A stretch of DNA of 64,000 nt from Bacteroidaceae bacterium (GCA_045597745.1 JAZLKQ010000528.1:2208-66207), one strand, 5' to 3'. Counted from the stretch's first letter, positions 5,843 to 42,624 are shown. The notes: generated from the sequence alone by a model not told the origin. Program-made: numbers and translations.

Positions 5843-5861
5843 AATAGGAGCTGTATGACAG

Positions 5862-6284
5862 ATGAAAGATACTGAACTGAAGAAACAGAGGGACAGAGAC
5901 CTCTATGCCGCTTATGTTGAAGGACTCAGGCAGCGGACGTTCGCTTCGCTGGGTGAGGCGTCAGAGTATGCGCGTAAGCAGACAGCCCCCCAATACTATA
6001 TCTCCGCAAGGACTGCATCCCTGCTGATACACAAGATACAGAACAAGGTATCGCTCATTGACGTGCATGAGAGTTCGCGCAGGCGCATCTGGCAGCTCTA
6101 TGACCGTTACCAGGAATATCTGCGTGAGAACCCCGACACCAAGGAAGCGCGTGAGATCATCCTTGAGAAGCTCGTTGAGACGCCAGCACCGGAGTTCTTC
6201 CTGTCCGGCAGCAGGGCCAAGCATATCATAATAGAGGAGCGCAGACGCAGACGTTCCGTAATGCGTAACAAAGGACACCGATGA
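5862..6284 (+). CDS. small basic HTH-like protein (small terminase or transcription factor; undecided)
   Basis: 140 aa. First gene of the operon containing TerL. RDRDLYAAYVEGL...YISARTASLLIHKI looks like a Mor/HTH-type segment, and the C-terminus is RRRRR-rich. Confidence 0.6.
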   Translation: MKDTELKKQRDRDLYAAYVEGLRQRTFASLGEASEYARKQTAPQYYISARTASLLIHKIQNKVSLIDVHESSRRRIWQLYDRYQEYLRENPDTKEAREIILEKLVETPAPEFFLSGSRAKHIIIEERRRRRSVMRNKGHR

Positions 6285-23000: not shown

Positions 23001-26000
23001 GTAGAAGTTCGTTCTGCGTCTTGTTCTTAAACCTGTCAAGTTCGCTGTCAAAGCGCTCGCTTGCAGACATCCTTTCAACATCGTCACTGAATGCTTCCTT
23101 CTCTGCCTCTTCCTGGCTTACAAGCATCACGTCATCGCCAAGTATGTCAAGCAGCTCATGTGTCACCCACTGCTTGGCATCTGTGTCGTTCTCAAAGGTC
23201 TCGTCACCCTGGGCAATCTGAGCCTCGGACCTCGCCCTTTCATATATAGGGTTAGGCTCCATGAGTCCATAGTCCGCAGCAGATACATAGTCACTGATAG
23301 GGAAGCCGTCAACGCGGTTCTTCAGGTTGATGACATCAAGAACCCTAACATTGAACTTTCTTGCCTCGTCAGCAATCTTTGATGCCGAGTTGGTATTGAT
23401 ATTGTTACCATAGACCACAAACATACCTGCGCCCATGCGTGTTGCCATGTCAGAAGCATCCTTTGCGATAGCGCTCTCATTACCCTCAATGGTGTCGTAT
23501 GGCAGATGTATGTTTCCGACAACACCCATGTCATTAGTGATGACAAGCGCACTGATCTTGTTTCTCAATCCCAGACGCTGTGTTGCGATGTATTCTGCGA
23601 TATCATTTGAGCCGGTGACCCTCTTGCGAACAGTTCCGTTTACGAAGCTGAGTTTATCAAAAGAATATACCTTCTGCTTCTTCTCCTTCTCAGGAGCATC
23701 AAGCATATCTGCAATATCCTTGTCGTAACCATTGAATGTTGCATACTGATTCTTGAACGAGTCAATGATGATTCCATCAGCAACCTTGTCACCAAATGCT
23801 TTATGGAAAGCTTCAAGCATATACCTGTCCTCACGCGAAGGATTAAGATTTCCGCTTGGATGGTTATGAACCATGAATATCTTGTCCGGGATGATGTCGT
23901 TGACAGCCGGAATAATCACACGCAGGTCAACTGAAGTACCAGCAAAGCCTCCTATGCCAAGATGAATGATAGTAGGCTTTCCGTTCTTGACAAGGACAGC
24001 GAAGGAATGCTCCACAGCAGAATCCTGTAAAGTCTTGAAGATATAGGCCACATCCTCGTATGTCCTAATCCTGTTGTTTGATGTGAAGCTGTAATGCTTG
24101 TTCTCGGTGTACTGAGCTTCCACCAGACAGAACTCATCACCTTCTAATTGACGTAACCCGATTTCGGTTGGTCTATTAACCTTCCGTTGTACTCTATTGG
24201 ACCCGGCCCTGTTATTAGCGGCTTCTCCTCCTCTATCCGATACGCTTTCGCTTTCTTCTTCCGATTCATGCAGCAAAGATACATATTCTGTTTCTTTTCC
24301 GTCTGCTGAAGTGTAAACTACGCCTGGCTCATTAAGCATCACTTTGCCATCCTCACCTACCTGCTCGTCTATGACGTTGAAAAGATTCTCAAATGCTCCG
24401 TCAATAGCCGGAATCTCCTCGCCTGCAGGGTATGGGGTATGTTCCCATGCTGCCATATACAAATCTGACTTGTCATAGGTAAGATAGTCTGACGTTCCGC
24501 CGTTGGCCTTGATCCTGCGATCAACGAACGACTCGAAGCAGCGTGCAAACAACTCAACCTTTGTGCTCCAATAAGAAGATGCACGGCCCTTATCGAACCA
24601 GATGCTGTCATCAACAAGACGTGTAGGGATAGTCTTGGTATTGGTCTCAGTATTTCTTCTCTTCTCAAGCGAAGCCTTTGCCTTCTGCAGCCTATCCATC
24701 TGATACCATACATTGTGCATGGTCTTGAACTTGCCGTGTTCTCCAGGCTTTACATCCTTGACAAGCTCAAGGAGCTTCTCTGCTGCTTCACCCTTTGGTG
24801 CAAAATTACCTGCGAACTTTCCGGTAGTAGTCCATTCCCACTTGTAGTCGGTGGAGTTCTTCAGCTCCTCTATCAGCCTGTCGTATTCTGCAAGCTGCTC
24901 AGGTGTAGGCTTGGTCACTACCTGCTCACGCTGCTTGGTCTTACGATTATACTTGTATCGTGTAAGTCCTCTCTCGAACTGCTCTCTGTAGTACTTGGCC
25001 TCGCGGTCAATCTGCTTCAGCATCTTCTCTACCTCAGCCTCAGCGTCACTGACTGCGCTCTCGTTCTCCACCACCTGCTCGGTCATTGCCTTGACGATGG
25101 CATCGAACGCTGACAGGATTTCCTTTCTTGCACCACCTCTGTAGCTGCGGCCATTGGTGAGATAATGATCTGTGCTGTGCTTTTCGGCCTTCCTATCCTG
25201 CTTGTTGTCCATCATACCGAAGTAGTTGTCCAGGGCATGTGCCCACTCATGGGCAAGCGAGCCCGCACCGTTCATCTTAGTCAGGTTGATGACAGCCCTC
25301 GCGTTCTCATAATGTGCAGCACCAGCACCGCGGAATCCTGCATTGCCCGTACCTCTCGCGCCAAACGCAATGCCCAGTTCTCCGTTGAGGCTTATTGCCT
25401 TCGGTGATATGCCAAGCACGGCAGCAAGGTCCATGAGGGAATCATATGCTATGTTCAGCACTGACTGACGTTCCTCTGTGCTGAGCCAGTTGCCGAACTC
25501 ACCGCCACGGAAGCCGAATGTATTCATGAACTGCTCGGTGGTGACGTTCTTGCCCTTCCTGTAGTCCGGCATGTTTGTTCTTGTTACCTCAGTCAGTCCA
25601 GGAATATCAAAGTTCTCGCGCTTATGCTCAACAAGTGACCTTGCGCCTTCAGGTGAAGCAAGATATGCTGCTGCCTCCTCCTTGGTATCGAACTCTGCAT
25701 ACTGTACCTCCTTGCCGTTGCTTGCACGTCTGTAGATAATATGCTTTCCCTTGTCGTTAGTGCCGACACGGAAGCCTACAGAATGTGCCTCGAACACAGG
25801 AAGAACAGCTTCTGCCTCTTCCATGGAGTTAAACACAACAAGGTTACGCTCGGAGTCAACTACAGGATGGTTTATGACACGCTTGAACATGCCCTTACCC
25901 TTCTCTTCCTCCCAGAAGGCTACAAACGGCTTTGTCTCATCATACAAAGGCTTACCCAGAGTGATAACCTCAGACTCCTTTAGAACCATTATCATGTCAG

Positions 26001-29000
26001 CAGCAGGAATCTTGAATCCCTTCTGCTTCTCAAATTCCGCGATAAGATCCTGCTTATCCTGGGTGTAATTCCTGAACTGGTATTTCTTTCTCCATGCAGG
26101 AACATCACTCTTCTTGCCAGTCCTCTTGCGTGTAATAACCTCATCCTTTCTTGCACCGCCAATCTTTTCACCGAAATCTTCCGGACGTTCAGTGATTGGT
26201 TCCTCAATGTTTACCGATGCAAGTTGTGCCTTGACTTTCACAGCGTTTGCCTTCACAGCATTTTCGGTCGGATTTTCTGCCAACTCTTCGGTCTTTGACT
26301 CAACCTCGGTTGCAGGTCCGTCCGTACCGGTAGGCGGTGTTGTGTTGTCATGCTCATCAATAATCTTTTTGATGACCGGAATGAGTTCGGCATATCTCTT
26401 GCTGAGGAGTTCGCTTGATGTGAACTCTTCATAGCGCTTCTTAAGAGAATCAAGCATGTACTGCTCACTCTCGTTGCCGTTATAGTAGTAACCGCCCTTG
26501 GTAAGGAAGAATACGGAACGCAGATCATTCACGTTGAGTTCCGGAATGGTCACGTCCTTATTGTTCTTCAGCTCATTCTTTCCTCTTTCGTATTCGGAAA
26601 CCTGGAAATCGTGAATCTCCTGCAACGCCTGCTGACTGTATGGGTCAAGCATGCTGTCAATCTTATGCTGCAGGCTGACACGCTCATTAATCAGCTCCTC
26701 CCTGTTGGCTTCTGCAAAGATGTCGTTACCTACATTCTTGAGTTCCTTACCAATTGCCTCAATGCGGTCACGCATCTCATCAATCTGTGCGTACTGCTTT
26801 GCTGTCAGCCCTGCCTCATAGACAAATTCCTGCTTTTCCAGCTTCCACTCCGGCATGGTAGTCACATTGCCGTATGTGTTGGTGCCATCAGCACTAAGGT
26901 CATAGTAGAACTTGCCCAAACCGTTAGGAAGGATTCGGATAACCGTCATTTCCTTGCCGTCAACCATGAACCTGTCACCATATCCAAACTTGGCATTGCT
27001 CATGTCCTGTGACTTGATTTCGTTCACTACCTTGTTCCAGATTTGGCGCATCTCAGCGTCACTGCCTGGGCCAGGAACATCCCTTCCTCCGTGAGTGTCC
27101 ATAGGCTCCCAGCCTTCCTCTACAATGTGAGGATTGTGGGTAAGAAGGTTGCGCACACGATTTTCGTATGCCTTTGCACCGCGTGCATCGTTTTCCTTTG
27201 ATGCAGGCTGCTCTGCTTTGTTCTCTCCGGCAATTATGCCAGCCTCCACAAGAACGTCATTCTTGCGCTCCTTGCTGTGTTCGTAGGTTTCTACGCCATC
27301 AACCCATGATGCGTTAGTGTATTCGGAAACGCTGATACGTCCACCTTCAAGCTTCCTGGCTACCACAAGAACATCTGCATCCTTAAGGTAATAGGCAAAC
27401 GTGCCGTCAGTGCGCTTCTCCATGCCGATGAACCTGTCAAGGACTGGCATGAGCTTTGCACAGGCCTTTGTAGTAGGCTCCATTTCGCTGTAGCGGGAAT
27501 ATTCCGTATCATCACCGACAGTCCTTGCAAGTCTTGGGCCGTATGCTGCTCTTGACTTGGAATCGGTTGCAGGGTTGACACCAGCATGTGCATCAATGAC
27601 AAACTTCTTTATTTCCTCCTCAACAGCCTTGCTGAACTTGTAAGGAACAGCCTGCTCAATAGCCTTCTGCTGTGCAGCATCAGCCTCGGCATGGCTGACC
27701 CCGCTGAGCTCCTGAGCCTTCTTCCTCTTTGCTTCATACTCTGCCTGCCTCTGGGCATATCTGTCTGCGGCATCCTCAAATGCTTTCTTTGCTGTCTCGA
27801 TCTGCTCCTTGTACTGCGGGTAGAGTGACAGCAGACGTTCGTATGTCTTGGCAATAGCGGCCTTGCCGTCCTGCTTGTTACCCTCATAGTTCATGGCATG
27901 GCGGTCTGCTGCACCCTTCAGGTCTCTGTCAATAAACTGATATGAGAACTTGCCAGTGATGGAATAGTACACAGCATCAGCAAAAGCTGTGTCACCGCCC
28001 TCAAAGTCACGGATATTGATTCCGTACTTCTTGTCTGCGATGATGTCATCATTGCTGTCAAGACCGTATTCCTCGCGCTTTGCCGCCAGTTTCTTTGCGT
28101 CAAGCATCTTGTATGTCTTATACATACGGAAAGCGGTGTCATTGGCAACAGGGCCGTTGTATGCGAGCGCAAAACCGTTAATACACACCTTTGTGGCAAG
28201 GTTGTCCATGATTGGCAGACCCTCTTCCGTGAATCCTGTCACCTTATAGAGGCCGCTACCATCTGAATGTGTATAGTAACCTCCAACCTTGAAGCGCTTC
28301 TCTCCTGGAACGGAACCAGCAGGCTTCTGCTCCTTTGCTTCGGCCTTCGGTGCATCTGCATTCCCCTTCTTTGTCTCGGCCTTAGTTTCCTTCTTGCCAA
28401 GTGAATCCAGCTGCTTCTGCAGTTTCTCGCGCTCCTTCTCAAGTTCTGCGCGTTCATCGGCAGCGAAGATGTCATCAGCAGGGATTCTCGCAATCTTCTC
28501 GTTGATGAGAGCAATCCTTGCCTTGATGCCAGCGCCCTTGCTTTCCTTGCGGCTCATTGTGCTTGTGCTTACACCAAGGGCATTTGTCTTTGGCTCAGGA
28601 CGCTTCTCTTCGGCCTTGAACGCAACATCGGCAGGCATGCTGTATGTTGCATCCGGCTTTGTGTTCTTTTCCACATCAAAGTTGTCTGAATATACAGACT
28701 CACCCGACACCCTATGTACAGGTACCGAACCGCCGCCTGTACCATGCTCCCGGTAGAACGTGAACTCATCGTACTGAGGACTGTAGCCTTCGTATTTTAT
28801 TGTCACCGCGTTCTTGCCCTTGCCAATCGTGGCTGTGCCATACATATCGTTGGCTACCATTGCACGCATAACCTCACCTTCCTTGCCCTCCGGGAACTTG
28901 TAGTTCTTGAGATCCTTCGGAAGGAATGGTATCGGCTTGAATACGTCTGTCATGAAGTTGAAGTAATCCTTAATGGATGTCACCACAAGACGGTCACCGT

Positions 29001-32000
29001 ACAGCGCAAGCGAAGTGTTTGGGAACCTTTCTTTATGTGCCAGCGCACGTCTGCCAATCTCCTTTGTCCAGTCTGCGCCCTTCTCGTCAGGAAGGAATGT
29101 AGTAAATATGGTGTCTATGTATGCTATCGGCTTTCCGTCAACATCATGTGTTCTCGGCCATTCGTAGTTTCTTCTGGCAGATGTCACGGACTTGTCGATA
29201 TGCACCTCATTACCGGAAGACACGGTTACACCTTCAAGGTCTTCTGCCTCATCAAGGAACGCATCAATAGCCTTGTCTCGTTCCTCCTTGGTGCTTGTCC
29301 AGACGGCATCACCTGTAGGGAACACGGCAAGACCGAACTTGTCGGCTCTGGCTTTCTCCTTTGCTTCAAGCTCAATCTGCTTCTGTGTCTTGTATGCGAT
29401 GCTCTTTTCCAGGCAGTCAACAGCAAAGTCGTACACATGTTCAATGAGTTCCTTGTACTGCGGATATTTCTTCAGCGCAAGCGGCTTCTTTTGTCTTGTC
29501 TTTTCAAGTGCGCGTGTATCACTTTCAATGTCATCAATGTTGCGGAGCCTGCTGCCTTGATAGCATTCTGTTTTTTGAAGCAGTGACTCGATTGCATCTG
29601 TTGCGTATCTGTGCCCCTCCAGTGCAAAATGTACGATACGGTCTGCAAGACTGTTGGCATTCTTGTAAATAAAGAAGTCACCCAGCGCTGCCTTCTGCTT
29701 GTCAGACATCTTGTCTTGCTCATCCTTGTATGAATCAAAGTTCCAAGCCTTTGCAAGCCTTGCAGCCTCTTTCTTAATGCGCTCACGGAAATGCTCCCAT
29801 GTTTCTTCGTCTTCCTGCTCCTCTATACGCTGCTGTGCAAGCATGGTCTGTGCTATGGCAGCACCAGCCTCTGCATGTGCTTCCTGCTCCTTCTTGAGAT
29901 TCTGTGCTGTGGCAATGGCATCCGGCTTCTCTTTGTCGAAGTTGGTAACGTCAAACGCCAGGACGTCATTGTATGAGTCCATTTCTCCCACCATGCCAGA
30001 AGCTTCCGGAAGGTCGCGCACTGCATTGTAGAATGATTTGAGGTATGGACGCACCTCATCACCAAGGTCAGCAATCATGCTTGACGCGTAGTTCACGAAC
30101 TTTCGTGCGCCACGCTCAAGATGATAGACAGCCATTTCGGTACCGATGGCAAGAATCTCTGGATCTATGCCCATGTTCATCTGACCCGTGAGTTTCTTCT
30201 TCATGCGGGCCTTCAACTGCGCATACCTCTCATCAGTAACCAGTCTGTTGCCGGAAGGATTGTGGTTCACATCGCTGTGCTCGTTGACTACAGGAGAAAT
30301 CTGCTCTTCGGTTGCAAATGCTATCTCTTTGCCGGACTTAAGCCTGTAACCATTGTTGTCTGTTCCAGCAGGAATGTAATGGCCGACAATGGTGTATTCC
30401 TTGCCATTGAACATGACATTGGAACCCTGCGGATACTTGAATGACTCCCAGCGACTCTTTTGTGGCTCAGTTACACCTTCCTCGCTCTCGGTGTTTTCCA
30501 CAGCCTGGGCAGGAGTGTTGGCGCTTTCATCTGCCTTCTGCTCCTGCTCGCCAGTCTGTGTGTTGGTATTAGATTGTATGAGTTCTGCGAATGGTACATA
30601 GCCATCAGGCAAGTAAGACTGTCTGTCAGCCTTGCTTACTCCACAGCGAGAAAGAAGAATCTCAACCCATTCCTCGCGTTCTTCTGCGGCCTTTCTGATG
30701 TTATTTAATGATGCCTGTCTTCTGCGCTCGTTAGCTGCACCTATTGTCGTGATAGTGCTTTCCAGATCTTCGTACTTGCCGCCAGCCTCAACCTTGGTGT
30801 TGTTCTTTTTATAGACGCGGCTTGCCCAGTCCTTGTACTCCTTTGCATAGCCAGGAATGTCTGCAAGAATCTTCGCAATAGCCTCACGCACATTGCTTGA
30901 TGTCGCAAGGGCCGTTGCATACTCATTCCTGCCGTGCTTGGCTTCCTGTGCAAAACTGGCCTTCTCCTCATCAAACTTGCGCTGAACCTCATCAGTTGCA
31001 TTGCCATTAGAATCAACAAGCACGTTTCGCGGACGAAGATCCTTAACTATTAGACTTGCGAATCCATGACGCTGACGCGGTGCTGGCTTGGAACCTTCAA
31101 ACTCTGCGTCAACAACATGAATATTGCCATTAGAATCAACAAGCACGTTTCGCGGACGAAGATCCTTAACTATTAGACTTCCGTTTGCATATTCCCCTTT
31201 GCCAACCCTTGAGAAGCCAAGTTGACGCATATAATCGTCTATCTGCTCCTCTGTGCATAATTTTGCATTATTAACAAATCGCTGGCGATATACGACATAA
31301 GCAGTTCCTTCCCCAAAACTTGCAATTCCAACAAGCTCGTATGCAGATTCTGGGAATAAACTATTGAATAGGGCTACTCTTTGCAGCAAATTTGCTATGC
31401 TGCCTCCCGTATGTGACAGATTGTTTACTTTGTAGATATACCCATCTTCCGATAGGTAATTATCATTCTCATCACCAGACTCAAATGGTGTACCGAAATT
31501 GGCTGTGGAAAGTTCGTGCCAAACACCTCTTTCCTTTGCCCATTTGATTGCGGCCGCAGCCTGTTCCTGACCGCTCTTGCCTTTTACTTCTCTTTCAAGG
31601 CTGAGTGCATCTTCCTGTGACGCTCCACTTCCTCCTGGACGTTCACTGGACCTTGATTCCTCAGATACTCCATTGCCTTCTGTGAGTTCTGACGGTGATA
31701 TTCGTTGAGATACTGTGTCATCGTTTTGATTTTCTTCTGCAAAGTTATCATTATTATTTTTTCCAGCAACTTCTGCTGACTGAGTTTTGCCCTTTCTTAC
31801 AAGAGTGATATTTTTTGGGATGTTCTCGCTCCAGGTTGTGCCGTCTTCCTCAAAGTACACATTGATTGCAGGCTGTCCGTTGAAAACAGTCTCCTTGATT
31901 TTCGTGATAGTCTTTTCGCCCTTATAGCCACGGACGTTGATAACATCACCAACTGCAAGCTCGTTGCCATCCTTATCTTTTGCAACATTCTCTTGTTTAT

Positions 32001-35000
32001 TTGAAGCAGCACCATTACCTTTGCTGTCAGAATCATCACGAGCAGAAAGGGGACTGCCGGATACTGATGTATGACTGATGGTGGAACGCCCGCCCACCGA
32101 TGATTTTTTCTCAATATCCTTCTTGTTCTTGTATGGCTCAGCTTTTTCATTCCAGAAGAATGATTTGTGCATTACTATTTTCCCTCCCTCATTATACATT
32201 CTGATAACAACAGCGTAACCTTTACCAATCATTTTGGTGAATGCTACACTACCATTGCTCAGGTCTTTCACATGGTCTGGATTGTTCAGAACATCTTGTA
32301 TCAGGTTGTAATCCTCATGATCAACTTCCGGATGGTGATTAACAGCATGGTCTATAAAATAGCCTTTACCGCAGTATATCCTGTTGTCTTTGAGTGTTCC
32401 ACCAAACAAAGATTGCATCCAGTCAGATGGTATATATGCAATAGGTTCAAGCTTGGCACCAAACTTTGCCACGATATCCTTTAATTCCCTTGCTTCTGCC
32501 CATTCCAAATCAGGATCGTTAAGCCAATCCTGCATTCTCTTCTGCATTTCCTTGGTATGGGCACCATCTTCAAACGATGTCTCTTCTGATTCATTCTGCT
32601 GGCTCGCATGCTTGGCATTGTAATAGTCTGCGGCCTCGGAATAGAGGATGAAGTCCACACCTGGGAACATGGCAGACAGCTCTGCCTTGAGCTTGCTTGC
32701 CACCTCAAAACCTGGAGCGTCCTCTTCGTTGAAGGACATATCATTTATGAGGACGGTAGCAATACCGTTCTCATTTAGTGTCTCTCCCTCGTTTGCTGCT
32801 ATGATGAACAGGCCGTCCCTGTATGCAGAGCCGGACCCTGTACCCATTGCAGCAGCTGCTGCCCTTGTATTCTCGTCAGCACCAAGAGGTGCAGTATAGA
32901 GTGCTGTACGGTCGTGTGAGATACCGTTGGTAAGAAGTTCAACAAGACGTGCAAGCGGATTATCCTTGGCCAATCCATGAGCATCAATGCCTACCGTCCA
33001 GTCAGGAAGGTTGTCAAGATACAGCGTACCCTCAAACTTCGCTGTGGCATCATGGATTGTTTTCTTTGCCCTTTCAACGGTAAGGCCAATCTTGCTGAGT
33101 ATGTTCCTCGCAAGATTCTCAAACTTGTTTACTTGCTCTGCTGGCTCATCCACCACGTCAGGACTGCCCGGAGCTGTGTCTGCTTGTCCTTGCTCTTGAG
33201 TTCCTGCGGTGTTATCAGCTTCTGCTGTGATGCCCAGTTCAGTGCCTCTGCCACTATCTGCGGCTTGTTCTCCTGCGCTTTCCACCACTCCTGGAACTGC
33301 GCTTTCCTCGTCTGCATTGTTTTCAGATCCATATAATGCGTTATAGTATTCGTTAATTTCATTGGCAGGTATCTCCACAAAGACACCGCCATTCAGTATT
33401 GCCTCCTCAAAGATGGTATATTCTTCCCAATTCTCAAAGCCGTAAGCCTGTGCGAATGCGTCCTGTGCATTCTGCTCATCGGCTACTGTCTGTGACTGCA
33501 TGCGTCCCAATTCGCGCTGACGTGCATCGTAGAGACCACGGACAGCGGCATAAGGAGAGTTGTTGCCAAGCACCTCATCAAGGATGTGGTCAAGTATCTC
33601 TGATACCGATGTCATGCCCTGCATGTACTCCGGCATGTTGTTGTATATGCTTTCGGCCACCTCTTCCGGGTACAGACCGCCCTTGTCGCGGTTGGCAAGC
33701 CATGAAATACGCTTCTTTCGCTCTTCCTCGGAGTCGCTGATGGTGTGCGCACCAAGTCCCTTAGTGCCGTTTGTGGCGTTGCCCCAAACGAACTTGTAAG
33801 AAGGAAGGGAACGTGTCACATACTCTGTCCATGACATAGGTTCGCCAAGCTGTGCATCAATCTCTTCAAGCGAAAGATCAGAAGAGTCTGCCTCCATGTC
33901 TATGTTACTGTCAGGTATGTTGATATTCTGCTGCTGAGCAACAGGCTTGTTGTAGCCGTCAATGATAGCCTGCAACTTGTCAATGCGCTGCTGGAGCTGG
34001 TCCTTCTCTGCAATGAGTTCCTTGCGCTCCTTGAAGTCAAGCGTCTTGTTGAACTTCTTCTCATTGTCAGCAACAGCTTTCTGCAGGGTGTTTATGACAA
34101 GGGCAATGTAGTTCTTTGAGTCCTCACCACCATCACCCTTCTGCTCATCGTTCCATGCGGCCCAGCCTTCCGGGTTCATGTTCCAGAACTGTTCTTCATT
34201 GACAGAGCCATCAGCATCAAGAGGAATAAGGTTGCCGTCCTTGTCCCTTGGACGGCCGTCATCTTCAACATCAGGCTTGGCAAGCTCATCAGCCTGCTCC
34301 TCAACGGCATCCTCTGTAGTCTCTTCAACGGCTTTGTTGGCCTCAATCAGTCCTGCAACCTCCGGCATTGTCAGCACAAGACGGATAGGACGGCCAAACT
34401 CATCCTTTGCATAGACCTGCAGGTACAGATCACCAATCTCATTGCTTACCCATTCACCAGTGCCGGTTATCTCATACGGCTGTCCCTCATGGTCAATCTT
34501 GGCAGACACTACAGTGGAACGGAAGTCCTGACGTATGTTCTCAAGCTCCATTTCATGCTTGACCTCTGCTGCATCCATCTGCTCATCGGTCATGACGTTG
34601 ATAGGTGTGCCAAGTGCAGCGGCCGCAACTTCAAGTGAAATATTTTCTGTATTGCCATTGGCATACTTGACAACATAGCCTCCAGGATACTCTGTCTGTA
34701 TTTCGCACATCTTCGGCTCCTCAACGGTACCAAGGTTGAGCTGGACACCTGGCCCAAGGTTCTTCATTGCCTCTTCGCGCTGTGCCTGTTCGTCAGACTG
34801 CATACGCTGTGCCTGGAGTTCTGCCTTGTGTTCCTTGATATAGTTATCAATGTAGGCATCATTGTCCATTGCTCCATGATCAACAATTGAGCCGTCTTCT
34901 ATGCCGTGCTGCAGCATGTCATCATCAACGAAGTGCTTTGTGCCATCCTCACAGATGACAGCACCATCAGCAGACTGGTAGAATCCGCGTGTCACCTTGC

Positions 35001-37206
35001 CGTTCTTGCCGACAAAGTCTATCTGGTGTATCTGCGGCTTTTCCTTGGTCTCATCAAGGTATTCGTATGACTCACCGCCTACGATGTTGCTTACCTCGCC
35101 ATACGCCTGTTCGCGCTCAATATTGTGTATTTCCTCTTCCATGGCCTGACCCATTTCGTTCATTGCCATGCCATGAGCGAGATCCAGGAGCTTTCTATAT
35201 TCCTTCTCATCCTTGCAGAGTGAAGCATAAGGAGCAAGCGCACGACCAATGTCCTCCGGTGTTGCAAAGCGCTTGTTGAAGAGTTCTGCAAGTTCCTCTC
35301 TTGTACCTTCCGGATCTGCGCTGTTACCTACGAGTATATCAGACATCTGTGCCACGTTGCTTGCGTACTGCTTGCTCATGGCTCTCATCTTGCGTATCTG
35401 TGTTGCTCCACTGATGCCTGTCATAAGACCGAACGAAGCAGCCATTTCAAGCTGTGATTCCCATGCTGTGCGCCTTGCACGCTGTGCATCTGTCAGGCCA
35501 TCCTCGCCAACCGTAGTGTTGTCATAGCGCACACCAGCAAGGAAAATGTCACCACCAAACTTGCCGAACTCCTTGCCGGACATGATGTCAATGCCTGGAA
35601 GGTAGCTTGCACCTACCCTTGCTGCATTGCCAATCCATTCCTCGCCCATTTCGCCAAGGAAGCCATTGAAGCCCATTTCCTTCATGAGCTGCACACCTCT
35701 TGCTGATGCTGCCCACTTGCCCATCTGATGCAGTGATACACCGCCCAGTGTTATGCCACCAGCAGCCTTGTCTATGCCTTTACCTACACCGCGCAGTATG
35801 CCGTTCAGTGACGCATCAACAGCGCCACCCATGCCCTCTGACCATACCTCTATGATAGCGTCAAGACCGCCAGAGATTATTGCGCGACCTGTGCCAAGCA
35901 GTTCTCCATCATCGGTGATGGTGTTCATGTTCTCAATGACGGTGTTCCATGATGCAGGCTGTAAAGCAACCTTGGACACAGCTTCAGTGATAGGCTTCTC
36001 AACATACCTGTATAGTCCTGCCTGTGTCTTGGTCATTTTTGAAACACGGTCAGCCATTGCAACCTCATCCTGTATTGATGTCATGAGTTCACGCGACAGC
36101 CATTTTACCATTGCGTTCTCCGACTTGCTCAGTGCCGCACCGATGCCCTTTGTCACTGCACCACTCAGCCAGAACTGAGCCATGAACGCGAGCGATTCCG
36201 TTGCGCCCTGTCCGGCAGAATAGCCCATAGACAAGTCATCTGCACGTCTGGCCTGTGCCAGCTGCATTGCAGTGAATGATTTGAGAAGAGCAGCCTCTGA
36301 AGGTGTCAGTATCCTGTCAATGTCATCAGGAGTAATCTCGTTGAGGTTGACAAGAGATTCCTGGAGCTTCTTATATACCTTGTGAACGCCACGCGCTTCT
36401 GCCGCGTCACTCAGGTTCATGGTAAGCAGTCCAAGATCCATGGCATCCCTCATGCCTTTCCAGTAGTTGACAAGGCCGTTGCTGTCATCGTACTTGCTTG
36501 GTGCTTCCCACATCTTACGCGCATCGTCCATCATGCGGTAAGCCTTGCGGTAGTTGCTCTTCGCGTCCTCACGTCCCTTGTTGGTGGACTCATCAGCCAT
36601 GCGCTGATACTCCTCTGCCGTGTGTGCTGCATTGCGGGCATTCCAGGCATAATCCTCGCCAACAGTAGGGATGGAATAATAGTCACGTCTAAGGCCTTCA
36701 CGTTCCTTGACAAGGTCATTGTAACGTCTTATCATGTCGTAGCCAGCCTGTGAAGGCGCACTCTGATTTGTCTTGATGTCCTTCAACAGCTGATCATATT
36801 CCTGCTGATGTGATTTGAGCCAACCGCCACGCTCAGCGTCATCCTCAAACTCTCCCATCCGCTGGAATGCTTCAAGCTCCTTGCCACGGAAATAGTTGCC
36901 GCGCTCATCGTTCACTACTTTCACGGTTGCATCAGGATGCTCCTTGTAGAGCTGGTCCTTCTTGGCCATGAACTTATCGTAACCGACAGACACACCCTGC
37001 TTGGCTCCGGCAAACTGCACTACAAACGAAGACTGCTTGTCAATGTTGTCACTGACAAGCGGGTCGTAGTCAAATACCTGCTGAACTGTTGCGTTAGGAT
37101 GTTCCTTGTAAAGCTGGTCCTTCTTGGCGTTGTAGGCATCTTCATCTACGAATACACCCTGCTTTGCGCCTTCAAACTGGACATAATACTGCTTCTTGTT
37201 ATCCAT
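15313..37206 (-). CDS. giant polyvalent multi-domain protein (7,297 aa)
   Basis: Uninterrupted ATG..TGA frame. It contains four HExxH-type sites, a RadC-type JAB site, an ART-like H-Y-E module, a kinase-like catalytic loop, a RelE/barnase-type nuclease-like module and C-terminal hydrophobic helices. Confidence 0.9.
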   Translation of the reverse strand: MDNKKQYYVQFEGAKQGVFVDEDAYNAKKDQLYKEHPNATVQQVFDYDPLVSDNIDKQSSFVVQFAGAKQGVSVGYDKFMAKKDQLYKEHPDATVKVVNDERGNYFRGKELEAFQRMGEFEDDAERGGWLKSHQQEYDQLLKDIKTNQSAPSQAGYDMIRRYNDLVKEREGLRRDYYSIPTVGEDYAWNARNAAHTAEEYQRMADESTNKGREDAKSNYRKAYRMMDDARKMWEAPSKYDDSNGLVNYWKGMRDAMDLGLLTMNLSDAAEARGVHKVYKKLQESLVNLNEITPDDIDRILTPSEAALLKSFTAMQLAQARRADDLSMGYSAGQGATESLAFMAQFWLSGAVTKGIGAALSKSENAMVKWLSRELMTSIQDEVAMADRVSKMTKTQAGLYRYVEKPITEAVSKVALQPASWNTVIENMNTITDDGELLGTGRAIISGGLDAIIEVWSEGMGGAVDASLNGILRGVGKGIDKAAGGITLGGVSLHQMGKWAASARGVQLMKEMGFNGFLGEMGEEWIGNAARVGASYLPGIDIMSGKEFGKFGGDIFLAGVRYDNTTVGEDGLTDAQRARRTAWESQLEMAASFGLMTGISGATQIRKMRAMSKQYASNVAQMSDILVGNSADPEGTREELAELFNKRFATPEDIGRALAPYASLCKDEKEYRKLLDLAHGMAMNEMGQAMEEEIHNIEREQAYGEVSNIVGGESYEYLDETKEKPQIHQIDFVGKNGKVTRGFYQSADGAVICEDGTKHFVDDDMLQHGIEDGSIVDHGAMDNDAYIDNYIKEHKAELQAQRMQSDEQAQREEAMKNLGPGVQLNLGTVEEPKMCEIQTEYPGGYVVKYANGNTENISLEVAAAALGTPINVMTDEQMDAAEVKHEMELENIRQDFRSTVVSAKIDHEGQPYEITGTGEWVSNEIGDLYLQVYAKDEFGRPIRLVLTMPEVAGLIEANKAVEETTEDAVEEQADELAKPDVEDDGRPRDKDGNLIPLDADGSVNEEQFWNMNPEGWAAWNDEQKGDGGEDSKNYIALVINTLQKAVADNEKKFNKTLDFKERKELIAEKDQLQQRIDKLQAIIDGYNKPVAQQQNINIPDSNIDMEADSSDLSLEEIDAQLGEPMSWTEYVTRSLPSYKFVWGNATNGTKGLGAHTISDSEEERKKRISWLANRDKGGLYPEEVAESIYNNMPEYMQGMTSVSEILDHILDEVLGNNSPYAAVRGLYDARQRELGRMQSQTVADEQNAQDAFAQAYGFENWEEYTIFEEAILNGGVFVEIPANEINEYYNALYGSENNADEESAVPGVVESAGEQAADSGRGTELGITAEADNTAGTQEQGQADTAPGSPDVVDEPAEQVNKFENLARNILSKIGLTVERAKKTIHDATAKFEGTLYLDNLPDWTVGIDAHGLAKDNPLARLVELLTNGISHDRTALYTAPLGADENTRAAAAAMGTGSGSAYRDGLFIIAANEGETLNENGIATVLINDMSFNEEDAPGFEVASKLKAELSAMFPGVDFILYSEAADYYNAKHASQQNESEETSFEDGAHTKEMQKRMQDWLNDPDLEWAEARELKDIVAKFGAKLEPIAYIPSDWMQSLFGGTLKDNRIYCGKGYFIDHAVNHHPEVDHEDYNLIQDVLNNPDHVKDLSNGSVAFTKMIGKGYAVVIRMYNEGGKIVMHKSFFWNEKAEPYKNKKDIEKKSSVGGRSTISHTSVSGSPLSARDDSDSKGNGAASNKQENVAKDKDGNELAVGDVINVRGYKGEKTITKIKETVFNGQPAINVYFEEDGTTWSENIPKNITLVRKGKTQSAEVAGKNNNDNFAEENQNDDTVSQRISPSELTEGNGVSEESRSSERPGGSGASQEDALSLEREVKGKSGQEQAAAAIKWAKERGVWHELSTANFGTPFESGDENDNYLSEDGYIYKVNNLSHTGGSIANLLQRVALFNSLFPESAYELVGIASFGEGTAYVVYRQRFVNNAKLCTEEQIDDYMRQLGFSRVGKGEYANGSLIVKDLRPRNVLVDSNGNIHVVDAEFEGSKPAPRQRHGFASLIVKDLRPRNVLVDSNGNATDEVQRKFDEEKASFAQEAKHGRNEYATALATSSNVREAIAKILADIPGYAKEYKDWASRVYKKNNTKVEAGGKYEDLESTITTIGAANERRRQASLNNIRKAAEEREEWVEILLSRCGVSKADRQSYLPDGYVPFAELIQSNTNTQTGEQEQKADESANTPAQAVENTESEEGVTEPQKSRWESFKYPQGSNVMFNGKEYTIVGHYIPAGTDNNGYRLKSGKEIAFATEEQISPVVNEHSDVNHNPSGNRLVTDERYAQLKARMKKKLTGQMNMGIDPEILAIGTEMAVYHLERGARKFVNYASSMIADLGDEVRPYLKSFYNAVRDLPEASGMVGEMDSYNDVLAFDVTNFDKEKPDAIATAQNLKKEQEAHAEAGAAIAQTMLAQQRIEEQEDEETWEHFRERIKKEAARLAKAWNFDSYKDEQDKMSDKQKAALGDFFIYKNANSLADRIVHFALEGHRYATDAIESLLQKTECYQGSRLRNIDDIESDTRALEKTRQKKPLALKKYPQYKELIEHVYDFAVDCLEKSIAYKTQKQIELEAKEKARADKFGLAVFPTGDAVWTSTKEERDKAIDAFLDEAEDLEGVTVSSGNEVHIDKSVTSARRNYEWPRTHDVDGKPIAYIDTIFTTFLPDEKGADWTKEIGRRALAHKERFPNTSLALYGDRLVVTSIKDYFNFMTDVFKPIPFLPKDLKNYKFPEGKEGEVMRAMVANDMYGTATIGKGKNAVTIKYEGYSPQYDEFTFYREHGTGGGSVPVHRVSGESVYSDNFDVEKNTKPDATYSMPADVAFKAEEKRPEPKTNALGVSTSTMSRKESKGAGIKARIALINEKIARIPADDIFAADERAELEKEREKLQKQLDSLGKKETKAETKKGNADAPKAEAKEQKPAGSVPGEKRFKVGGYYTHSDGSGLYKVTGFTEEGLPIMDNLATKVCINGFALAYNGPVANDTAFRMYKTYKMLDAKKLAAKREEYGLDSNDDIIADKKYGINIRDFEGGDTAFADAVYYSITGKFSYQFIDRDLKGAADRHAMNYEGNKQDGKAAIAKTYERLLSLYPQYKEQIETAKKAFEDAADRYAQRQAEYEAKRKKAQELSGVSHAEADAAQQKAIEQAVPYKFSKAVEEEIKKFVIDAHAGVNPATDSKSRAAYGPRLARTVGDDTEYSRYSEMEPTTKACAKLMPVLDRFIGMEKRTDGTFAYYLKDADVLVVARKLEGGRISVSEYTNASWVDGVETYEHSKERKNDVLVEAGIIAGENKAEQPASKENDARGAKAYENRVRNLLTHNPHIVEEGWEPMDTHGGRDVPGPGSDAEMRQIWNKVVNEIKSQDMSNAKFGYGDRFMVDGKEMTVIRILPNGLGKFYYDLSADGTNTYGNVTTMPEWKLEKQEFVYEAGLTAKQYAQIDEMRDRIEAIGKELKNVGNDIFAEANREELINERVSLQHKIDSMLDPYSQQALQEIHDFQVSEYERGKNELKNNKDVTIPELNVNDLRSVFFLTKGGYYYNGNESEQYMLDSLKKRYEEFTSSELLSKRYAELIPVIKKIIDEHDNTTPPTGTDGPATEVESKTEELAENPTENAVKANAVKVKAQLASVNIEEPITERPEDFGEKIGGARKDEVITRKRTGKKSDVPAWRKKYQFRNYTQDKQDLIAEFEKQKGFKIPAADMIMVLKESEVITLGKPLYDETKPFVAFWEEEKGKGMFKRVINHPVVDSERNLVVFNSMEEAEAVLPVFEAHSVGFRVGTNDKGKHIIYRRASNGKEVQYAEFDTKEEAAAYLASPEGARSLVEHKRENFDIPGLTEVTRTNMPDYRKGKNVTTEQFMNTFGFRGGEFGNWLSTEERQSVLNIAYDSLMDLAAVLGISPKAISLNGELGIAFGARGTGNAGFRGAGAAHYENARAVINLTKMNGAGSLAHEWAHALDNYFGMMDNKQDRKAEKHSTDHYLTNGRSYRGGARKEILSAFDAIVKAMTEQVVENESAVSDAEAEVEKMLKQIDREAKYYREQFERGLTRYKYNRKTKQREQVVTKPTPEQLAEYDRLIEELKNSTDYKWEWTTTGKFAGNFAPKGEAAEKLLELVKDVKPGEHGKFKTMHNVWYQMDRLQKAKASLEKRRNTETNTKTIPTRLVDDSIWFDKGRASSYWSTKVELFARCFESFVDRRIKANGGTSDYLTYDKSDLYMAAWEHTPYPAGEEIPAIDGAFENLFNVIDEQVGEDGKVMLNEPGVVYTSADGKETEYVSLLHESEEESESVSDRGGEAANNRAGSNRVQRKVNRPTEIGLRQLEGDEFCLVEAQYTENKHYSFTSNNRIRTYEDVAYIFKTLQDSAVEHSFAVLVKNGKPTIIHLGIGGFAGTSVDLRVIIPAVNDIIPDKIFMVHNHPSGNLNPSREDRYMLEAFHKAFGDKVADGIIIDSFKNQYATFNGYDKDIADMLDAPEKEKKQKVYSFDKLSFVNGTVRKRVTGSNDIAEYIATQRLGLRNKISALVITNDMGVVGNIHLPYDTIEGNESAIAKDASDMATRMGAGMFVVYGNNINTNSASKIADEARKFNVRVLDVINLKNRVDGFPISDYVSAADYGLMEPNPIYERARSEAQIAQGDETFENDTDAKQWVTHELLDILGDDVMLVSQEEAEKEAFSDDVERMSASERFDSELDRFKNKTQNELLHLGKPMAKLKACGINAEELTLSPNVLNKHLKKHNLSTDDLKGLASAIQEPMLVYKHGDNKPNIVVVTELEANGGKLSISVKIDENGNVSEIDNVRSIHPKDANRELERLSSLREGELKNSLRWVEKEKVLNWLFGVSLIRLMPEDASSELKSVAKILNDFSNPTIREEKTELMVAYHGSAADFDAFDHSHMGEGEGHQVHGWGTYVAFNSDTSRRYAATMAGKYLTVDFAGKEITADTSVYGAKSLLDGIVRNKELYRKEYLMIDLENSRKSYEKMLNDAKKENNEHAIKTFSNNIALIDEIRDALEGVGDLKTEVSKVDFGGILYNVDIPDNNGSNYIDEGNDNRNYLKEIAGRLGKYADMFTYGVDHGYINNFHQLYERLSEKEGSKENASKYLYDAGFVGIRYNGMHDKECAVIFNDKDIKITDKTQFSKNGRTVYGYAKDGKVYLSPDGINPNTPIHEYTHLWAKAMQKRNPAGWADIVKLLKGTAVWNEVLADENYQNLNSDDAIASEVLSRISGSENAKKMIAEAEKAIAEADGVLEKAKAIRLRDRMKQALEKFWNWVGTELFGMRFDSIEQVTDRVLYDLVNKTDLGEPVEGDVEAAIRTKPAPKKTGVGYKVFYKGKDGKLYPPMVANQGGVDTPVGVWLDAEEGTKAPDSKTGRPQVKQGGKGTQGGSGTLAYRPGWHLGKIPYALQFNRKDENGNKTLFPKDFVWAEVEYAMDKNYQEEAMQEGMTASGKFQHSLAGLKRLPEDGYYEYRTNPNPATDPWIITGAMKVNKILTKDEVDALVREAGREPQRVEGDTKPISGKAAVDAEVQKFLAPDRLSITEAGKRKAHEAMNEQIASVDVTNMDDIERSEAAIEKGLSGAFRTYYDGMDLTEHPDVPAIVKEAFGGAEYKHEDIPAELERMIADERTEMESLKADADADASDELAKRFYEESRQKVADMEQGLFWYNSHKNDMTVAPDEFFDNDGIYVGAENVTEADTTRDRTDYPEDRHKGESDVDFANRVVGYFSRRFNSLKEIVVVPTDVTAEELSQKTGMSLEDAEKFVSGKIRKYNGWNLEAPANKILLIANGRTTTESVLRTLFHENLHAFFKMVYSSLSREDFIIEKARFARTFKESIKYAVQDFWGEDYYEFVSNLDGAEEFAAHTIARAITTSRIVELMDYMNSWQRDFVERYLDNIDYGTDEEGKEGNEGGYGLAEGASGGITEGFKGREGRRRRGVLRTAQSAVENPQQIGYETEEEKKNSRGVPGSERGTEVSDGRPEGTRGDGSIGVHDSQVSLSKRDAALNAAKEIGVEIEFLSREEMPAGHKFSMGFWRNGKIVLCLANNISANEAVKTVLHEAVGHEGLRKLIGDEKMDAFCRWIYRNLPKSRRAIIDLAREHHGWDISQATEEYIAGLAETDNYSSEPGEQSAWEKIKSWLRSHVPFFRVPLSGNDIRYMLFQSYHANRADSLDVAVRRAKLAHRLGFSYDVLEAKAKAYDIIRDREVEERMENDAANMYNNSESYIFSRFKEITVDMYSSVNHLVEALEKSSGKKVKAFEDVRLALNQAPGKGKEAIDKWRENYAKPLYKVVHEIVEKTGMSIEEVEDYLMKKHGIERNEVFAKRDARNDYKAEYDSAINAIENSDLTELEKDAKKKKAEARLQKHLDAIEKGTDPKYKEYREKDYGGLTGIYSELDDKFDPQKGANESEEHYNARYLEARKPMFETIAETEAQAAKDVADVENRMGDLADELWKRVNAATKSTLKMQYDYNLISREQYNNLTSMFEYYVPLRGFKENTANDFYSYDSSYTGSAFVHPIIEAKGRKSQATSPIGYIGAMASSTVAQGEKNSAKLALYYCAGNRADNNLLKISDVWYEKEVDADGEPVRDDNGRLVFRPVYPPLSESLTSEEARASYEAWEAGMKRKAKEGLAFKGTSKLDLNHSVIHISESEKNAHIIKFKVMGKDMMMYVNGNPRAAQAINNELNVEVSYSKTFFFGKLLRYFSGISTSYNPEFWVSNIQRDLLFALMSSYIKNDPEYNRAFRKNLVIALKVIKMNNADANGTLGNSYLDERFREFKENGGVTGFTQIKSAQEWENDLYNGGGILSHDEYALVNAANYVIRFGESMEQITRFAAFLTSREQGKDIRECIADAKEITVNFNRKGSGQSLTVEEAKKLRWKNGKNLTDREAKIAAILSWIPENGRKFIMFFNASVQGLYNTYKLYQKDKRKSLQFVGMYAGLAALNAIIHAMMDDDDDYLDQSDFTRRTNLLLGGKIGDDHVYFKWSLPQEMRVFYALGDIATNKIMGRSADENFMGEVLKAMLDVMPLNPTDGVAAFVPSIASPFFEVWVNRDYKGAAIRKENKYLTEEEKKRTPKYDQVFNNTGKFWIEVSKMLNVISGGDEYDAGIINVNPADLEHIFEGVTGGVGTTAEKLYRGTLGALIGQIPGSFGERFGNEFKLGQFPVLSRLFLSTDERYRNAYVNDVFQYYKAEAEHTATVVKKARKAGDKKKLQHLMDNGDYRIMELYNDFKSELNALDKAIRAAESDDERKELMKAQDAVRKDLINAIERKVK
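18940..18960 (-). other. giant ORF: zincin-like site 4 (HEAVGHE)
   Basis: VKTVLHEAVGHEGLRKLIG, read from the reverse complement of ctcatggccaactgcctcatg. Confidence 0.45.
19714..19728 (-). other. giant ORF: zincin site 3 (HENLH)
   Basis: RTLFHENLHAFFK, read from the reverse complement of gtgcagattctcgtg. Confidence 0.5.
20620..21160 (-). other. giant ORF: conserved-looking module of unknown function (GYKVFYKGKDGKLYPP...LAYRPGWHLG...)
   Basis: The motif string YKVFY..GKLYPPMV..GVWLDAEEG..LAYRPGWHLGKIPYA..DFVWAEVEY..DGYYEYRTNPNP..WIITGAMKV was read from the translation. Confidence 0.35.
21607..21621 (-). other. giant ORF: zincin site 2 (HEYTH)
   Basis: NTPIHEYTHLWAKAM, roughly 35-40 aa C-terminal of the ART-like module. 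Confidence 0.55.
21720..22490 (-). other. giant ORF: ADP-ribosyltransferase-like (H-Y-E) module
   Basis: LMVAYHGSAADFDAFDHSHMGEGEG..HGWGTYVAFNSD ... GFVGIRYNGMHDKECAVIFNDKDIKI. The order His, Tyr, Glu matches PARP/diphtheria-toxin-type ARTs of polyvalent proteins. Confidence 0.5.
23740..24060 (-). other. giant ORF: RadC-like JAB/MPN metalloprotease module
   Basis: IFMVHNHPSGNLNPSREDRYML (HNHPSG at 23851..23868) is the canonical RadC/JAB HxHPSGxxxPSxxD signature. Confidence 0.8.
24480..25530 (-). other. giant ORF: zincin site 1 module (FGFRGGEFGNW ... HEWAH ... ELFARCFE)
   Basis: FMNTFGFRGGEFGNW (25486-25530), GSLAHEWAHALDNYFG (HEWAH at 25237..25251) and VELFARCFESFV (about 24515-24570). Confidence 0.55.
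26141..26182 (-). other. giant ORF: EDFGEKIGGARKDE motif
   Basis: Read from the reverse complement. It sits N-terminal to the zincin-1 module after a Thr/Pro/Glu-rich linker. Confidence 0.3.
31000..31180. repeat. perfect 58-bp direct repeat (31000..31057 and 31123..31180), in frame, inside the giant ORF
   Basis: attgccattagaatcaacaagcacgtttcgcggacgaagatccttaactattagactt occurs twice, 123 bp apart (41 codons). It duplicates SLIVKDLRPRNVLVDSNGN. Confidence 0.95.
31000..31560 (-). other. giant ORF: protein-kinase-like module
   Basis: GYIYKVNN (Lys), then LIVKDLRPRNVLVDSNGNIHVVDAEF, which resembles the HRDLKPxN catalytic loop plus a DFG-like metal-binding Asp. Confidence 0.45.
32145..32435 (-). 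other. giant ORF: barnase/EndoU/RelE-type nuclease-like (PBECR-like) module
   Basis: LKDNRIYCGKGYFIDHAVNHHPEVDHEDYNLIQDVLNNPDHV..GSVAFTK..GYAVVIRMYNEGGKIVMHKSFFW. The pattern recalls PBECR modules of polyvalent/MuF proteins. Confidence 0.4.
36895..37194 (-). repeat. giant ORF: tandem duplicated N-terminal module (2 x about 45 aa)
   Basis: YVQFEGAKQGVFVDEDAYNAKKDQLYKEHPNATVQQV and VVQFAGAKQGVSVGYDKFMAKKDQLYKEHPDATVKVV. The DNA copies are clearly related. Confidence 0.85.
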
Positions 37207-41273: not shown

Positions 41274-41317
41274 CGAAAATATGCAAGCCATGGAACGCTG
41301 TAAGTCTATCTTAGCCT
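41274..41317 (-). promoter_or_regulatory. late-promoter-like composite element #5
   Basis: AGGCTAAGATAGAC (41317..41304), a 22-nt spacer, then TATTTTCG (41281..41274). The integrase TAA stop (41311-41313) lies inside the 14-mer. Confidence 0.5.
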
Positions 41318-42378
41318 ATTTGAGGTATCAGCTCTGCCGCCTCGCGCTTCTTCTTGTCCACCACCTTTGCGTAAATCTGCGTAGTGTTTACGTTAGAGTG
41401 TCCCAGCAGCCTTGATACGGTGTATATGTCTGCTCCGTATGTTATGAGCAATGTCGCGTATGTGTGACGTGCGCAGTGAAATGTTATGTGCTTATTGATG
41501 CCTGCCCTCTTCACCCATGTGGCCAGCACCTCGCCCAAAGCATTACGGTTGAACGCGCGGAAAACGTTCTTCATATACGGATTGCGTTTCGGAAGCCATG
41601 CTATAGCATTTTCCGTCAGTGGCACCTGCACCATCCTCTTTGTCTTGACCTGCACCTTCTCCACCATCATGCCGTTCTCATCCTGCTTTATCTCTTCCCA
41701 CGTCAGAGTCTCCAGGTCTATGAGACGGAGTCCCGTGAAGCATGAGACAAGAAACATGTTCTTGACAAGAGACTGACAAGGAGTTGCCATAAGCTTCTTC
41801 ACCTCATCAAGCGTGAGAAATTCACGCTTTACCTCTTCCATTTCCGGCTTTTCCTTTCTTGCCAGCTTGCTTGCTGGGTTGATGTCAAGAAGATCTTCGC
41901 GCACCGCAGCACTGAGCAGGGTGACAATGGTGAAAAAGTATGTGTAGCATGTGTTCACACTATACTTGCCCGTCCTCTGTAATGAACGTGAGAATTCCCT
42001 CAACCATGCACCATCTATCTCATCAAGGTACAACTTGCCCACGAACTTCTTTACCTTTGCATACCCCTCTGCGCGTGAGTGACTGCCACGACTCTCATAC
42101 TCCGCGACCTTTTCATCTATGTAATCCGAAAACAACTTGCGCTGTCTCTTCGGCTTTATTCCGGCCATACCGTTCTGGAGATCTATAGTGCGCTGTGCCT
42201 TGATGGTCATTGCCGCCTTCATGGTCTCCTGGTTCTGTATCTTGTCCAGCTTTGTCTTCTCTGCAACAAGGTACATCTTAAGATATTCCTTGCGTCTTAC
42301 ACCATTGATGCTGTAATCAAGATACAAGCTCTGTCCCTCGCGCATCGGCTTCTTCCTGAGTGTTACAAGCTCCTTCAT
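41311..42378 (-). CDS. int: tyrosine site-specific integrase
   Basis: C-terminal HCARHTYATLLITYGADIYTVSRLLGHSNVNTTQIYAKV carries the R..H-x-x-R..Y catalytic signature. The N-terminal LRKKPMREGQSLYLDYSINGVRRKEYL is a Bacteroidales-type arm-binding domain. The first ATG is at 42378. Confidence 0.9.
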   Translation of the reverse strand: MKELVTLRKKPMREGQSLYLDYSINGVRRKEYLKMYLVAEKTKLDKIQNQETMKAAMTIKAQRTIDLQNGMAGIKPKRQRKLFSDYIDEKVAEYESRGSHSRAEGYAKVKKFVGKLYLDEIDGAWLREFSRSLQRTGKYSVNTCYTYFFTIVTLLSAAVREDLLDINPASKLARKEKPEMEEVKREFLTLDEVKKLMATPCQSLVKNMFLVSCFTGLRLIDLETLTWEEIKQDENGMMVEKVQVKTKRMVQVPLTENAIAWLPKRNPYMKNVFRAFNRNALGEVLATWVKRAGINKHITFHCARHTYATLLITYGADIYTVSRLLGHSNVNTTQIYAKVVDKKKREAAELIPQIG

Positions 42379-42624
42379 AATGAGGTACAAAAAAGGGACA
42401 AATAATTAGGAAAATGTGGGAAATAGGCGGGAATTAAACGGGTAATTCCGTCCCTTCTAACACCATTTGTACCATACTCAAAAGACACTATGTCAGTCAT
42501 TTGGATAGTCATTTTACACGTTTTGCTTCTGAACATATTTACTTATATTTATATTGTATTTATATTACTAATCTATAATCTTTTATCGTGTTTTCTACAA
42601 CCCCACCCAGGGCCACTCAAGGGA

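Follow-up and report, generated by a model that had tools for sequence, protein, structure and literature searches.

A predicted Kinase-PolyVal domain followed by an in-frame copy of its catalytic loop in a giant polyvalent protein encoded on a Bacteroidaceae metagenomic contig

A 64,000-nucleotide (nt) stretch of a Bacteroidaceae bacterium assembly (GCA_045597745.1, positions 2208 to 66207 of JAZLKQ010000528.1; here called the window, with positions counted from its first letter) carries on its minus strand a giant open reading frame (ORF) whose predicted product (P0001; 7297 amino acids [aa]) has the features of a phage polyvalent protein. An original prediction, made from the sequence alone, had pointed to a kinase-like module in this ORF with a perfectly duplicated catalytic loop. 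Judging from residue conservation and a structural model, we conclude that residues 1880 to 2036 of P0001 form an intact domain belonging to the known Kinase-PolyVal family (PF18762) with all catalytic residues kept, and the kinase is probably active. The best explanation overall, which we consider fairly probable, is that P0001 is an injected phage polyvalent protein with an intact Kinase-PolyVal domain and a recent, probably neutral 19-codon copy of part of that domain in the linker behind it.

A Pfam scan of residues 1851 to 2100 matched Kinase-PolyVal with an E value of 9.4e-31 and a score of 107.4 bits (cutoff, 27) over profile positions 2 to 156 of 160. The generic Pfam models Pkinase (E value, 0.036) and APH (E value, 0.056) for the same residues, as well as a sequence-profile search of the PDB (best E value, 0.16), were consistent with a kinase and insignificant alone. 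In an alignment of the window's kinase segment with 46 short homologs (47 sequences; alignment A1), columns K56, N58, N78, Q105, D145, N150, and D163 were each invariant (47/47), and all seven counterparts are present in P0001 (K1926, N1928, N1948, Q1975, D2015, N2020, and D2033, respectively). These include the complete active-site set, namely, the strand-3 Lys (K1926, within GYIYKV), the catalytic-loop Asp and Asn (D2015 and N2020, within DLRPRN), and the DFG-equivalent Asp (D2033, within VVDAEF). The Glu before strand 2 (E1913) is shared by 46 of the 47 sequences and the Gln of the last N-lobe strand (Q1975) by all of them; we infer from the alignment that these two columns correspond to family features described by Iyer, Burroughs, Anand, de Souza, and Aravind (2017, PMC5512222). 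The family-typical His upstream of the catalytic Asp is replaced by Phe1947 (31366 to 31368, minus strand). His occupies this position in 40 of the 47 sequences and six others carry Phe or Tyr, so that on alignment evidence Phe1947 is a minority state inside the family and no ground for exclusion.

An AlphaFold2 model of residues 1871 to 2100, built with alignment A1, had a mean predicted local distance difference test score (pLDDT) of 86.6 and a predicted template modeling (TM) score of 0.71, with 10-residue block means of pLDDT between 91 and 98 over model residues 1 to 170. A Foldseek search against the PDB returned 34 matches at E values of ≤0.001, and among the matches listed (ranks 1 to 50) all were protein kinases. 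The top match was HopBF1 (6pwg_A; E value, 1.1e-4; TM score on the target, 0.47), followed by JAK1, MET, MerTK, Rio2, and other kinases. VIA-align placed OspG first (4bvu_A; Z score, 8.2; root mean square deviation, 3.6 Å; 128 residues aligned; model residues 27 to 176), and all 50 entries among the matches listed were again kinases. A Z score of about 8 counts as middling by the tool's own scale; the call of a kinase fold rests on the agreement of the Pfam match with the conserved motifs and with a match list made up of kinases throughout, and not on the Z score alone. The protein-kinase-like module of the original prediction is thus borne out by the Pfam match, by pLDDT values above 90 over the domain, and by the kinase fold obtained in the fold prediction that it had suggested as a check. 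Its catalytic-loop residues, DFG-like Asp, and candidate ATP-binding Lys turned out to be the family-invariant D2015/N2020, D2033, and K1926.

The original prediction had also regarded a kinase fold as atypical of polyvalent proteins. This view is contradicted by the Pfam title of PF18762 ([quoted passage not shown]) and by the relevant passages of Iyer et al. (2017, PMC5512222), in which Kinase-PolyVal is one of four protein-modifying domain families of polyvalent proteins. As characterized in those passages, the clade consists of monophyletic kinases that have lost the whole C-terminal subdomain (C-lobe) and retained the ATP-binding and phosphotransfer residues. P0001 shows the same loss, with the profile and all homology ending at about residue 2036 to 2040.

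The segment encoding the catalytic loop occurs twice in the ORF (Table 1). The identity of the two copies spans exactly 58 nt and stops on both sides at differing bases; their starts lie 123 nt (41 codons) apart, with a 65-nt spacer between them. An automated repeat search reported a longer pair of 68 nt (94%); the added 10 nt agree at only 6 of 10 positions. Together with a 27-nt tandem array near 53.8 kb, the pair represents the sole exact repeats of at least 25 nt in the window, and simple arithmetic gives a chance expectation of about 1e-26 for a 58-nt exact match in 64 kb. Both copies are in frame within the giant ORF and encode SLIVKDLRPRNVLVDSNGN, at residues 2010 to 2028 (copy 1) and 2051 to 2069 (copy 2). 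Since each copy comprises one third-codon-position base and 19 whole codons, the repeat is best regarded as an in-frame copy of 57 nt (19 codons), extended by one base that happens to match. Copy 1, the first in the reading direction, is followed by IHVVDAEF, whereas ATDEVQRKF follows copy 2, which lacks the DAEF motif. A Pfam match to the SBBP beta-propeller repeat (24.8 bits over two stretches) was rejected; it comes from a short motif, VDSNGN, extends over only 19 of the 38 profile positions, and owes its score to both copies added together.

The start of copy 2 lies 18 residues past Asp2033. The Pfam match to Kinase-PolyVal stops ahead of this copy, at residue 2036; nearly all matches in a 50%-clustered library stop at query positions 184 to 192 (residues 2034 to 2042), and the structural alignments stop at model residues 164 to 180. 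Among the 46 short homologs, 33 end no more than 25 residues past the DFG-equivalent Asp, and 23 end no more than 9 residues past it. AlphaFold2 confidence over copy 2 (about model residues 181 to 200) was low (mean pLDDT, 45 to 64). Because the Kinase-PolyVal family ends right after the DFG-equivalent Asp, copy 2 is placed in a flexible linker; according to homology and the model, it is an orphan peptide in a low-confidence linker past a truncated kinase, not a second active site. With respect to the original prediction, the perfect in-frame 58-bp duplication, its spacing, and the missing DAEF motif were all as claimed. The duplication of the catalytic loop itself holds at the sequence level and fails structurally, with the second copy lying beyond the domain.

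The doublet is private to P0001 within a large family. In the 50%-clustered library, 1,087 representatives matched the kinase at E values of ≤0.001 (best identity, about 52%). Searches by protein size gave 178 matches among giant proteins of 4013 to 12770 aa (best identities, 47 to 53%), 16 matches at E values of ≤1e-30 among proteins of 526 to 2000 aa (best identity, 51%), and 349 matches at E values of ≤1e-25 among proteins of 165 to 525 aa (best identity, 49% among the 120 matches listed); the class of 2001 to 4012 aa was covered by the 50%-clustered library only. Of 300 further genomes from the family to which the host belongs, 62 also had a kinase match (best identity, 48%). Pattern searches returned 18 matches in viral_contigs and 215 in metagenome_contigs, none of which was confirmed, and blastn found no relative among GenBank phages. 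A close single-copy relative was sought among giant and short proteins, contigs, same-family genomes, and phages, and no relative of any kind was found above about 53% identity. We scanned 390 family proteins for the loop motif D-x-x-P-x-N-hydrophobic, and 373 had at least one. Two such motifs within 150 residues were found in P0001 only, an outcome already obtained with the first 266 proteins. The protein P0002 has two complete tandem kinase domains, an arrangement distinct from the loop doublet of P0001.

A tblastn search with the 250-aa kinase segment against 50,697 GenBank phage records gave no match, although the domain is often encountered in Bacteroidota genomes and metagenomes. Deposited phage genomes seem to lack the Kinase-PolyVal family at tblastn sensitivity.

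A tandem duplication, either A-B-A-B with a diverged second B or B-A-B-A, was ruled out as the origin of the repeat because the spacer resembles neither flank. Its ungapped identities to the 65 nt before copy 1 and the 65 nt after copy 2 were 25% and 23%, respectively, against a null of 26.5 ± 5.6%, and the sole local match between spacer and flank (11 of 12 nt with a gap) was judged to be due to chance. The event we envisage is recent and would have copied 19 codons (57 nt and one matching base) to a site 22 codons downstream, the insertion point lying between two GCA codons (Ala2050 and Ala2070). From the sequence around this point, the ancestral protein most likely read ...RQRHGFA-ATDEVQRKF... 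there. The mechanism was probably of the template-switching type, during replication or repair. The inserted copy would leave the domain fold and all catalytic residues untouched, and the peptide that it adds is most likely carried along with no effect or at a slight cost. We infer, rather than observe, the reality of the repeat in the DNA, its mode of origin, its neutrality, and its proneness to deletion.

The setting of the kinase is that of a phage polyvalent protein. Disparate domains are combined in one polypeptide, with PBECR3, Kinase-PolyVal, LPD1, RadC-JAB, MuF_C, and LPD38 all scoring above their Pfam cutoffs, and genes for a capsid protein, a portal protein, an M15 peptidase, and an integrase lie on the same contig. 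The contig also encodes a helix-turn-helix regulator, RecT, and a PD-(D/E)XK-FtsK protein. According to the portions of Iyer et al. (2017, PMC5512222) that deal with their delivery, phage polyvalent proteins are packaged in the head and injected along with the DNA, and the capsid, portal, integrase, and MuF_C setting of P0001 fits this description. The tyrosine integrase points to a temperate lifestyle. The ORF product would accordingly be pictured as a virion-packaged, injected effector of an approximately 67-kb temperate Bacteroides-type phage, and its kinase, by analogy with the family, presumably phosphorylates proteins of the host at an early stage of infection.

Several points weigh against the explanation that we prefer. 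The replacement of the family-typical His by Phe1947 means that full kinase activity is not guaranteed. The neutrality of copy 2 is an assumption, and its low pLDDT may merely reflect the fact that no homolog covers it. The nontandem A-B-A layout is not a product of simple slippage, and no close relative displays the single-copy ancestor, the best identity being only about 53%. Finally, the window belongs to a 67,070-nt contig (C528) of a fragmented metagenome-assembled genome (553 contigs; 78% completeness), so that at the DNA level the duplication is no more than probable.

In an alternative that we consider unlikely, the true phage is single copy and the A-B-A arrangement arose in metagenome assembly, merging, or polishing. 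Besides the fragmented source, the perfect identity of the copies suits a computational duplication, and no other sample or relative carries the arrangement. The repeat length of 58 equals k − 1 at k = 59, a k value of a common metagenome assembler. However, the copies are not adjacent, whereas overlap-duplication artifacts are tandem, and by our reasoning a de Bruijn assembler would output the junctions between spacer and copy 2 and between copy 2 and the downstream sequence only if the reads contained both. The 21.9-kb reading frame was moreover kept open, which has a chance of one in three, and a search of the source genome found the region once, with no alternative contig in the bin.

Provided that the duplication is genuine, the 58-nt direct repeats and the 65-nt spacer between them would lend themselves to deletion, by strand slippage or homologous recombination. 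Direct repeats that are short and close together readily undergo deletion through RecA-independent slippage. Such a deletion would drop exactly 41 codons, including that of Asp2033, and keep the remainder of the 7297-aa protein in frame; its product would be an otherwise full-length, kinase-dead protein. We considered it improbable that the repeats are maintained as a contingency device, in which frequent in-frame deletion of Asp2033 would yield mixed kinase-positive and kinase-negative phage, which could be useful against a kinase-sensing host defense. The exact 41-codon unit with its invariant Asp2033 would suit such a device, but the doublet occurs in 1 of 390 family members, and its perfect identity points to a recent rather than a maintained feature. 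Phase variation depends on reversible switching at a repeat tract or an invertible element, and what we found are two nonadjacent direct copies; a reversible on/off switch is impossible here because a deletion between direct copies cannot be reversed. Of the on/off switch raised in the original prediction, a one-way kinase-off deletion is the only form conceivable from the layout of the repeats. It is still less probable that such one-way 41-codon deletions serve to keep a kinase-less phage subpopulation as a bet hedge against hosts that sense the kinase activity or are protected through it. Because the doublet is both perfect and unique, there is no sign of selection for it.

The reading to which we give the least credence is that copy 2 is a functional extra peptide (an autoinhibitory or pseudosubstrate segment, a strand-swap dimerization element, or a decoy for a loop-recognizing host factor), since its in-frame position directly past the domain on a flexible tether is set against a low-confidence prediction with no docked conformation in the model, absence from all 389 relatives examined, and no accumulated divergence hinting at adaptation.

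The positions of the repeat, the kinase, the other domains of P0001, and the phage genes of the window are compiled in Table 1. Most of the giant protein is blank in Pfam (e.g., residues 1 to 1600, 2100 to 3800, and 5000 to 6900). At 7297 aa, P0001 exceeds in length all other giants with a Kinase-PolyVal domain among the matches listed (119 proteins of 4024 to 6018 aa). Near its N terminus (residues about 5 to 100; approximately 36900 to 37200, minus strand), a module of about 54 residues occurs twice, marked by AKKDQLYKEH (residues 27 and 81) with VQFxGAKQGV alongside.

TABLE 1 Features of the window (plus-strand coordinates; residue numbers refer to P0001)
Feature	Position	Strand	Evidence or remark
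SU10-type major capsid protein	3254..4960	-	PF17236, E value 1.2e-6
P22-like portal protein	9325..11304	-	PF16510, E value 1.6e-11; 29-31% identity to three temperate Bacteroides phage portals
Giant ORF, 7297 aa (P0001), phage polyvalent protein	15313..37206	-	ORF translation; six Pfam domains above cutoffs
LPD38, residues about 6979-7162	15721..16272	-	Pfam E value 7.4e-32
ART-PolyVal-like stretch, residues about 4904-4961	22324..22497	-	E value 3.8e-6, 28.1 bits, below cutoff of 31.2
MuF_C, residues about 4762-4864	22615..22923	-	Pfam E value 1.1e-13
RadC-like JAB, residues about 4383-4483	23758..24060	-	Pfam E value 1.2e-9
LPD1, residues about 4205-4281	24364..24594	-	Pfam E value 1.3e-16
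Repeat copy 2	31000..31057	-	One base and codons S2051-N2069; orphan copy in predicted interdomain linker, then ATDEVQRKF
Spacer, 65 nt	31058..31122	-	Encodes IHVVDAEFEGSKPAPRQRHGF(A); contains DFG-equivalent Asp2033 and the kinase domain end
Repeat copy 1	31123..31180	-	One base and codons S2010-N2028; genuine strand / catalytic loop / strand / turn, with Asp2015 and Asn2020
Kinase-PolyVal domain (PF18762), residues 1880-2036	31099..31569	-	Pfam, model pLDDT, kinase fold matches; predicted intact minimal kinase without C-lobe
Codon of Lys1926 (YKVNN), invariant putative ATP-binding Lys	31429..31431	-	K in 47/47 sequences of alignment A1
PBECR3 predicted RNase domain, residues about 1606-1684	32155..32391	-	Pfam E value 1.2e-7, 32.1 bits (cutoff, 30)
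Tyrosine integrase	41311..42390	-	Phage_integrase E value 7.7e-26, with SAM-like and Arm-DNA-binding domains

Elsewhere in the window, a rhomboid-like ORF (6281 to 6748, plus strand; subthreshold in Pfam) and then a 725-aa ORF (6684 to 8861, plus strand) adjoin the portal gene. The 27-nt tandem repeat (53779 to 53880, plus strand; 3.8 copies with 93% matches) lies inside a DUF7666 ORF (53439 to 54098). Near the end of the phage contig, an ORF of 461 aa (62542 to 63927, minus strand) matches reverse transcriptase (RVT_1; E value, 1.9e-12) and may be of the diversity-generating retroelement, retron, or group II intron type. A link between this ORF and the kinase repeat through a diversity-generating retroelement was rejected; no template/variable-type repeat of at least 40 nt was found in positions 56000 to 64000, and the kinase repeat is perfect, unlike the pairs of such retroelements. 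The 67,070-nt contig begins and ends with the same 12 nt (chance, about 1e-7 by arithmetic), and judging from these termini it may represent a whole phage genome of about 67 kb, either circular or terminally redundant.

The duplication is a curiosity in one metagenome-derived genome and not a new system, and its significance hardly extends beyond annotation. The case nevertheless shows why a kinase without a C-lobe tolerates an insertion just 18 residues past its DFG-equivalent Asp. Should the duplication prove real, the phage would be a natural construct in which one in-frame deletion silences one activity of a 7297-aa multienzyme effector, and this construct could help to probe Kinase-PolyVal function. 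To our knowledge, no Kinase-PolyVal domain has apparently been characterized experimentally, although no literature search was aimed at this point.

Among known phages, the temperate Bacteroides phages BF1-TP2, BKO1-TP3, and BS-TP4 (64 to 68 kb) offer the comparison for the contig, with portals 29 to 31% identical to that of the window. BF1-TP2 has a 68-kb genome with the same rhomboid and portal neighborhood, a tyrosine recombinase, and a 10.9-kb coding sequence annotated as "hypothetical protein"; the large ORF of its rhomboid/portal neighborhood is annotated with a note citing a Terminase_6C structural match. Unlike the window, none of the three phages had a Kinase-PolyVal match by tblastn. 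Compared with the Kinase-PolyVal family, the P0001 domain has all the invariant residues as well as E1913 and Q1975, ends right after the DFG-equivalent Asp, and sits in a polyvalent protein of the Bacteroidota (pro)phage type, as in the examples given by Iyer et al. (2017, PMC5512222) in the sections cited above. It differs from the family in its private 19-residue loop repeat 22 residues downstream, found in no other of the 390 proteins, and in having Phe1947 for His. Overall, the observation of the original prediction is confirmed and its interpretation partly supported; the kinase is a further member of a known family, and the duplication is a private, recent, probably neutral event, or possibly an artifact.

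The best structural matches were OspG of Shigella (PDB 4bvu and 4q5e; Z score, 8.2) and HopBF1 (6pwg and 6pwd; Z score, 7.6), kinases of approximately 170 residues that likewise do without most of the C-lobe and are delivered into a target cell. Their sequence identity to the P0001 kinase is only 16 to 18% and the Z scores of about 8 are middling; common descent is shown no further than the kinase superfamily. OspG and HopBF1 are effectors that type III secretion systems deliver and that act on eukaryotic hosts, whereas the P0001 kinase is a domain of a phage protein and presumably acts in a bacterium.

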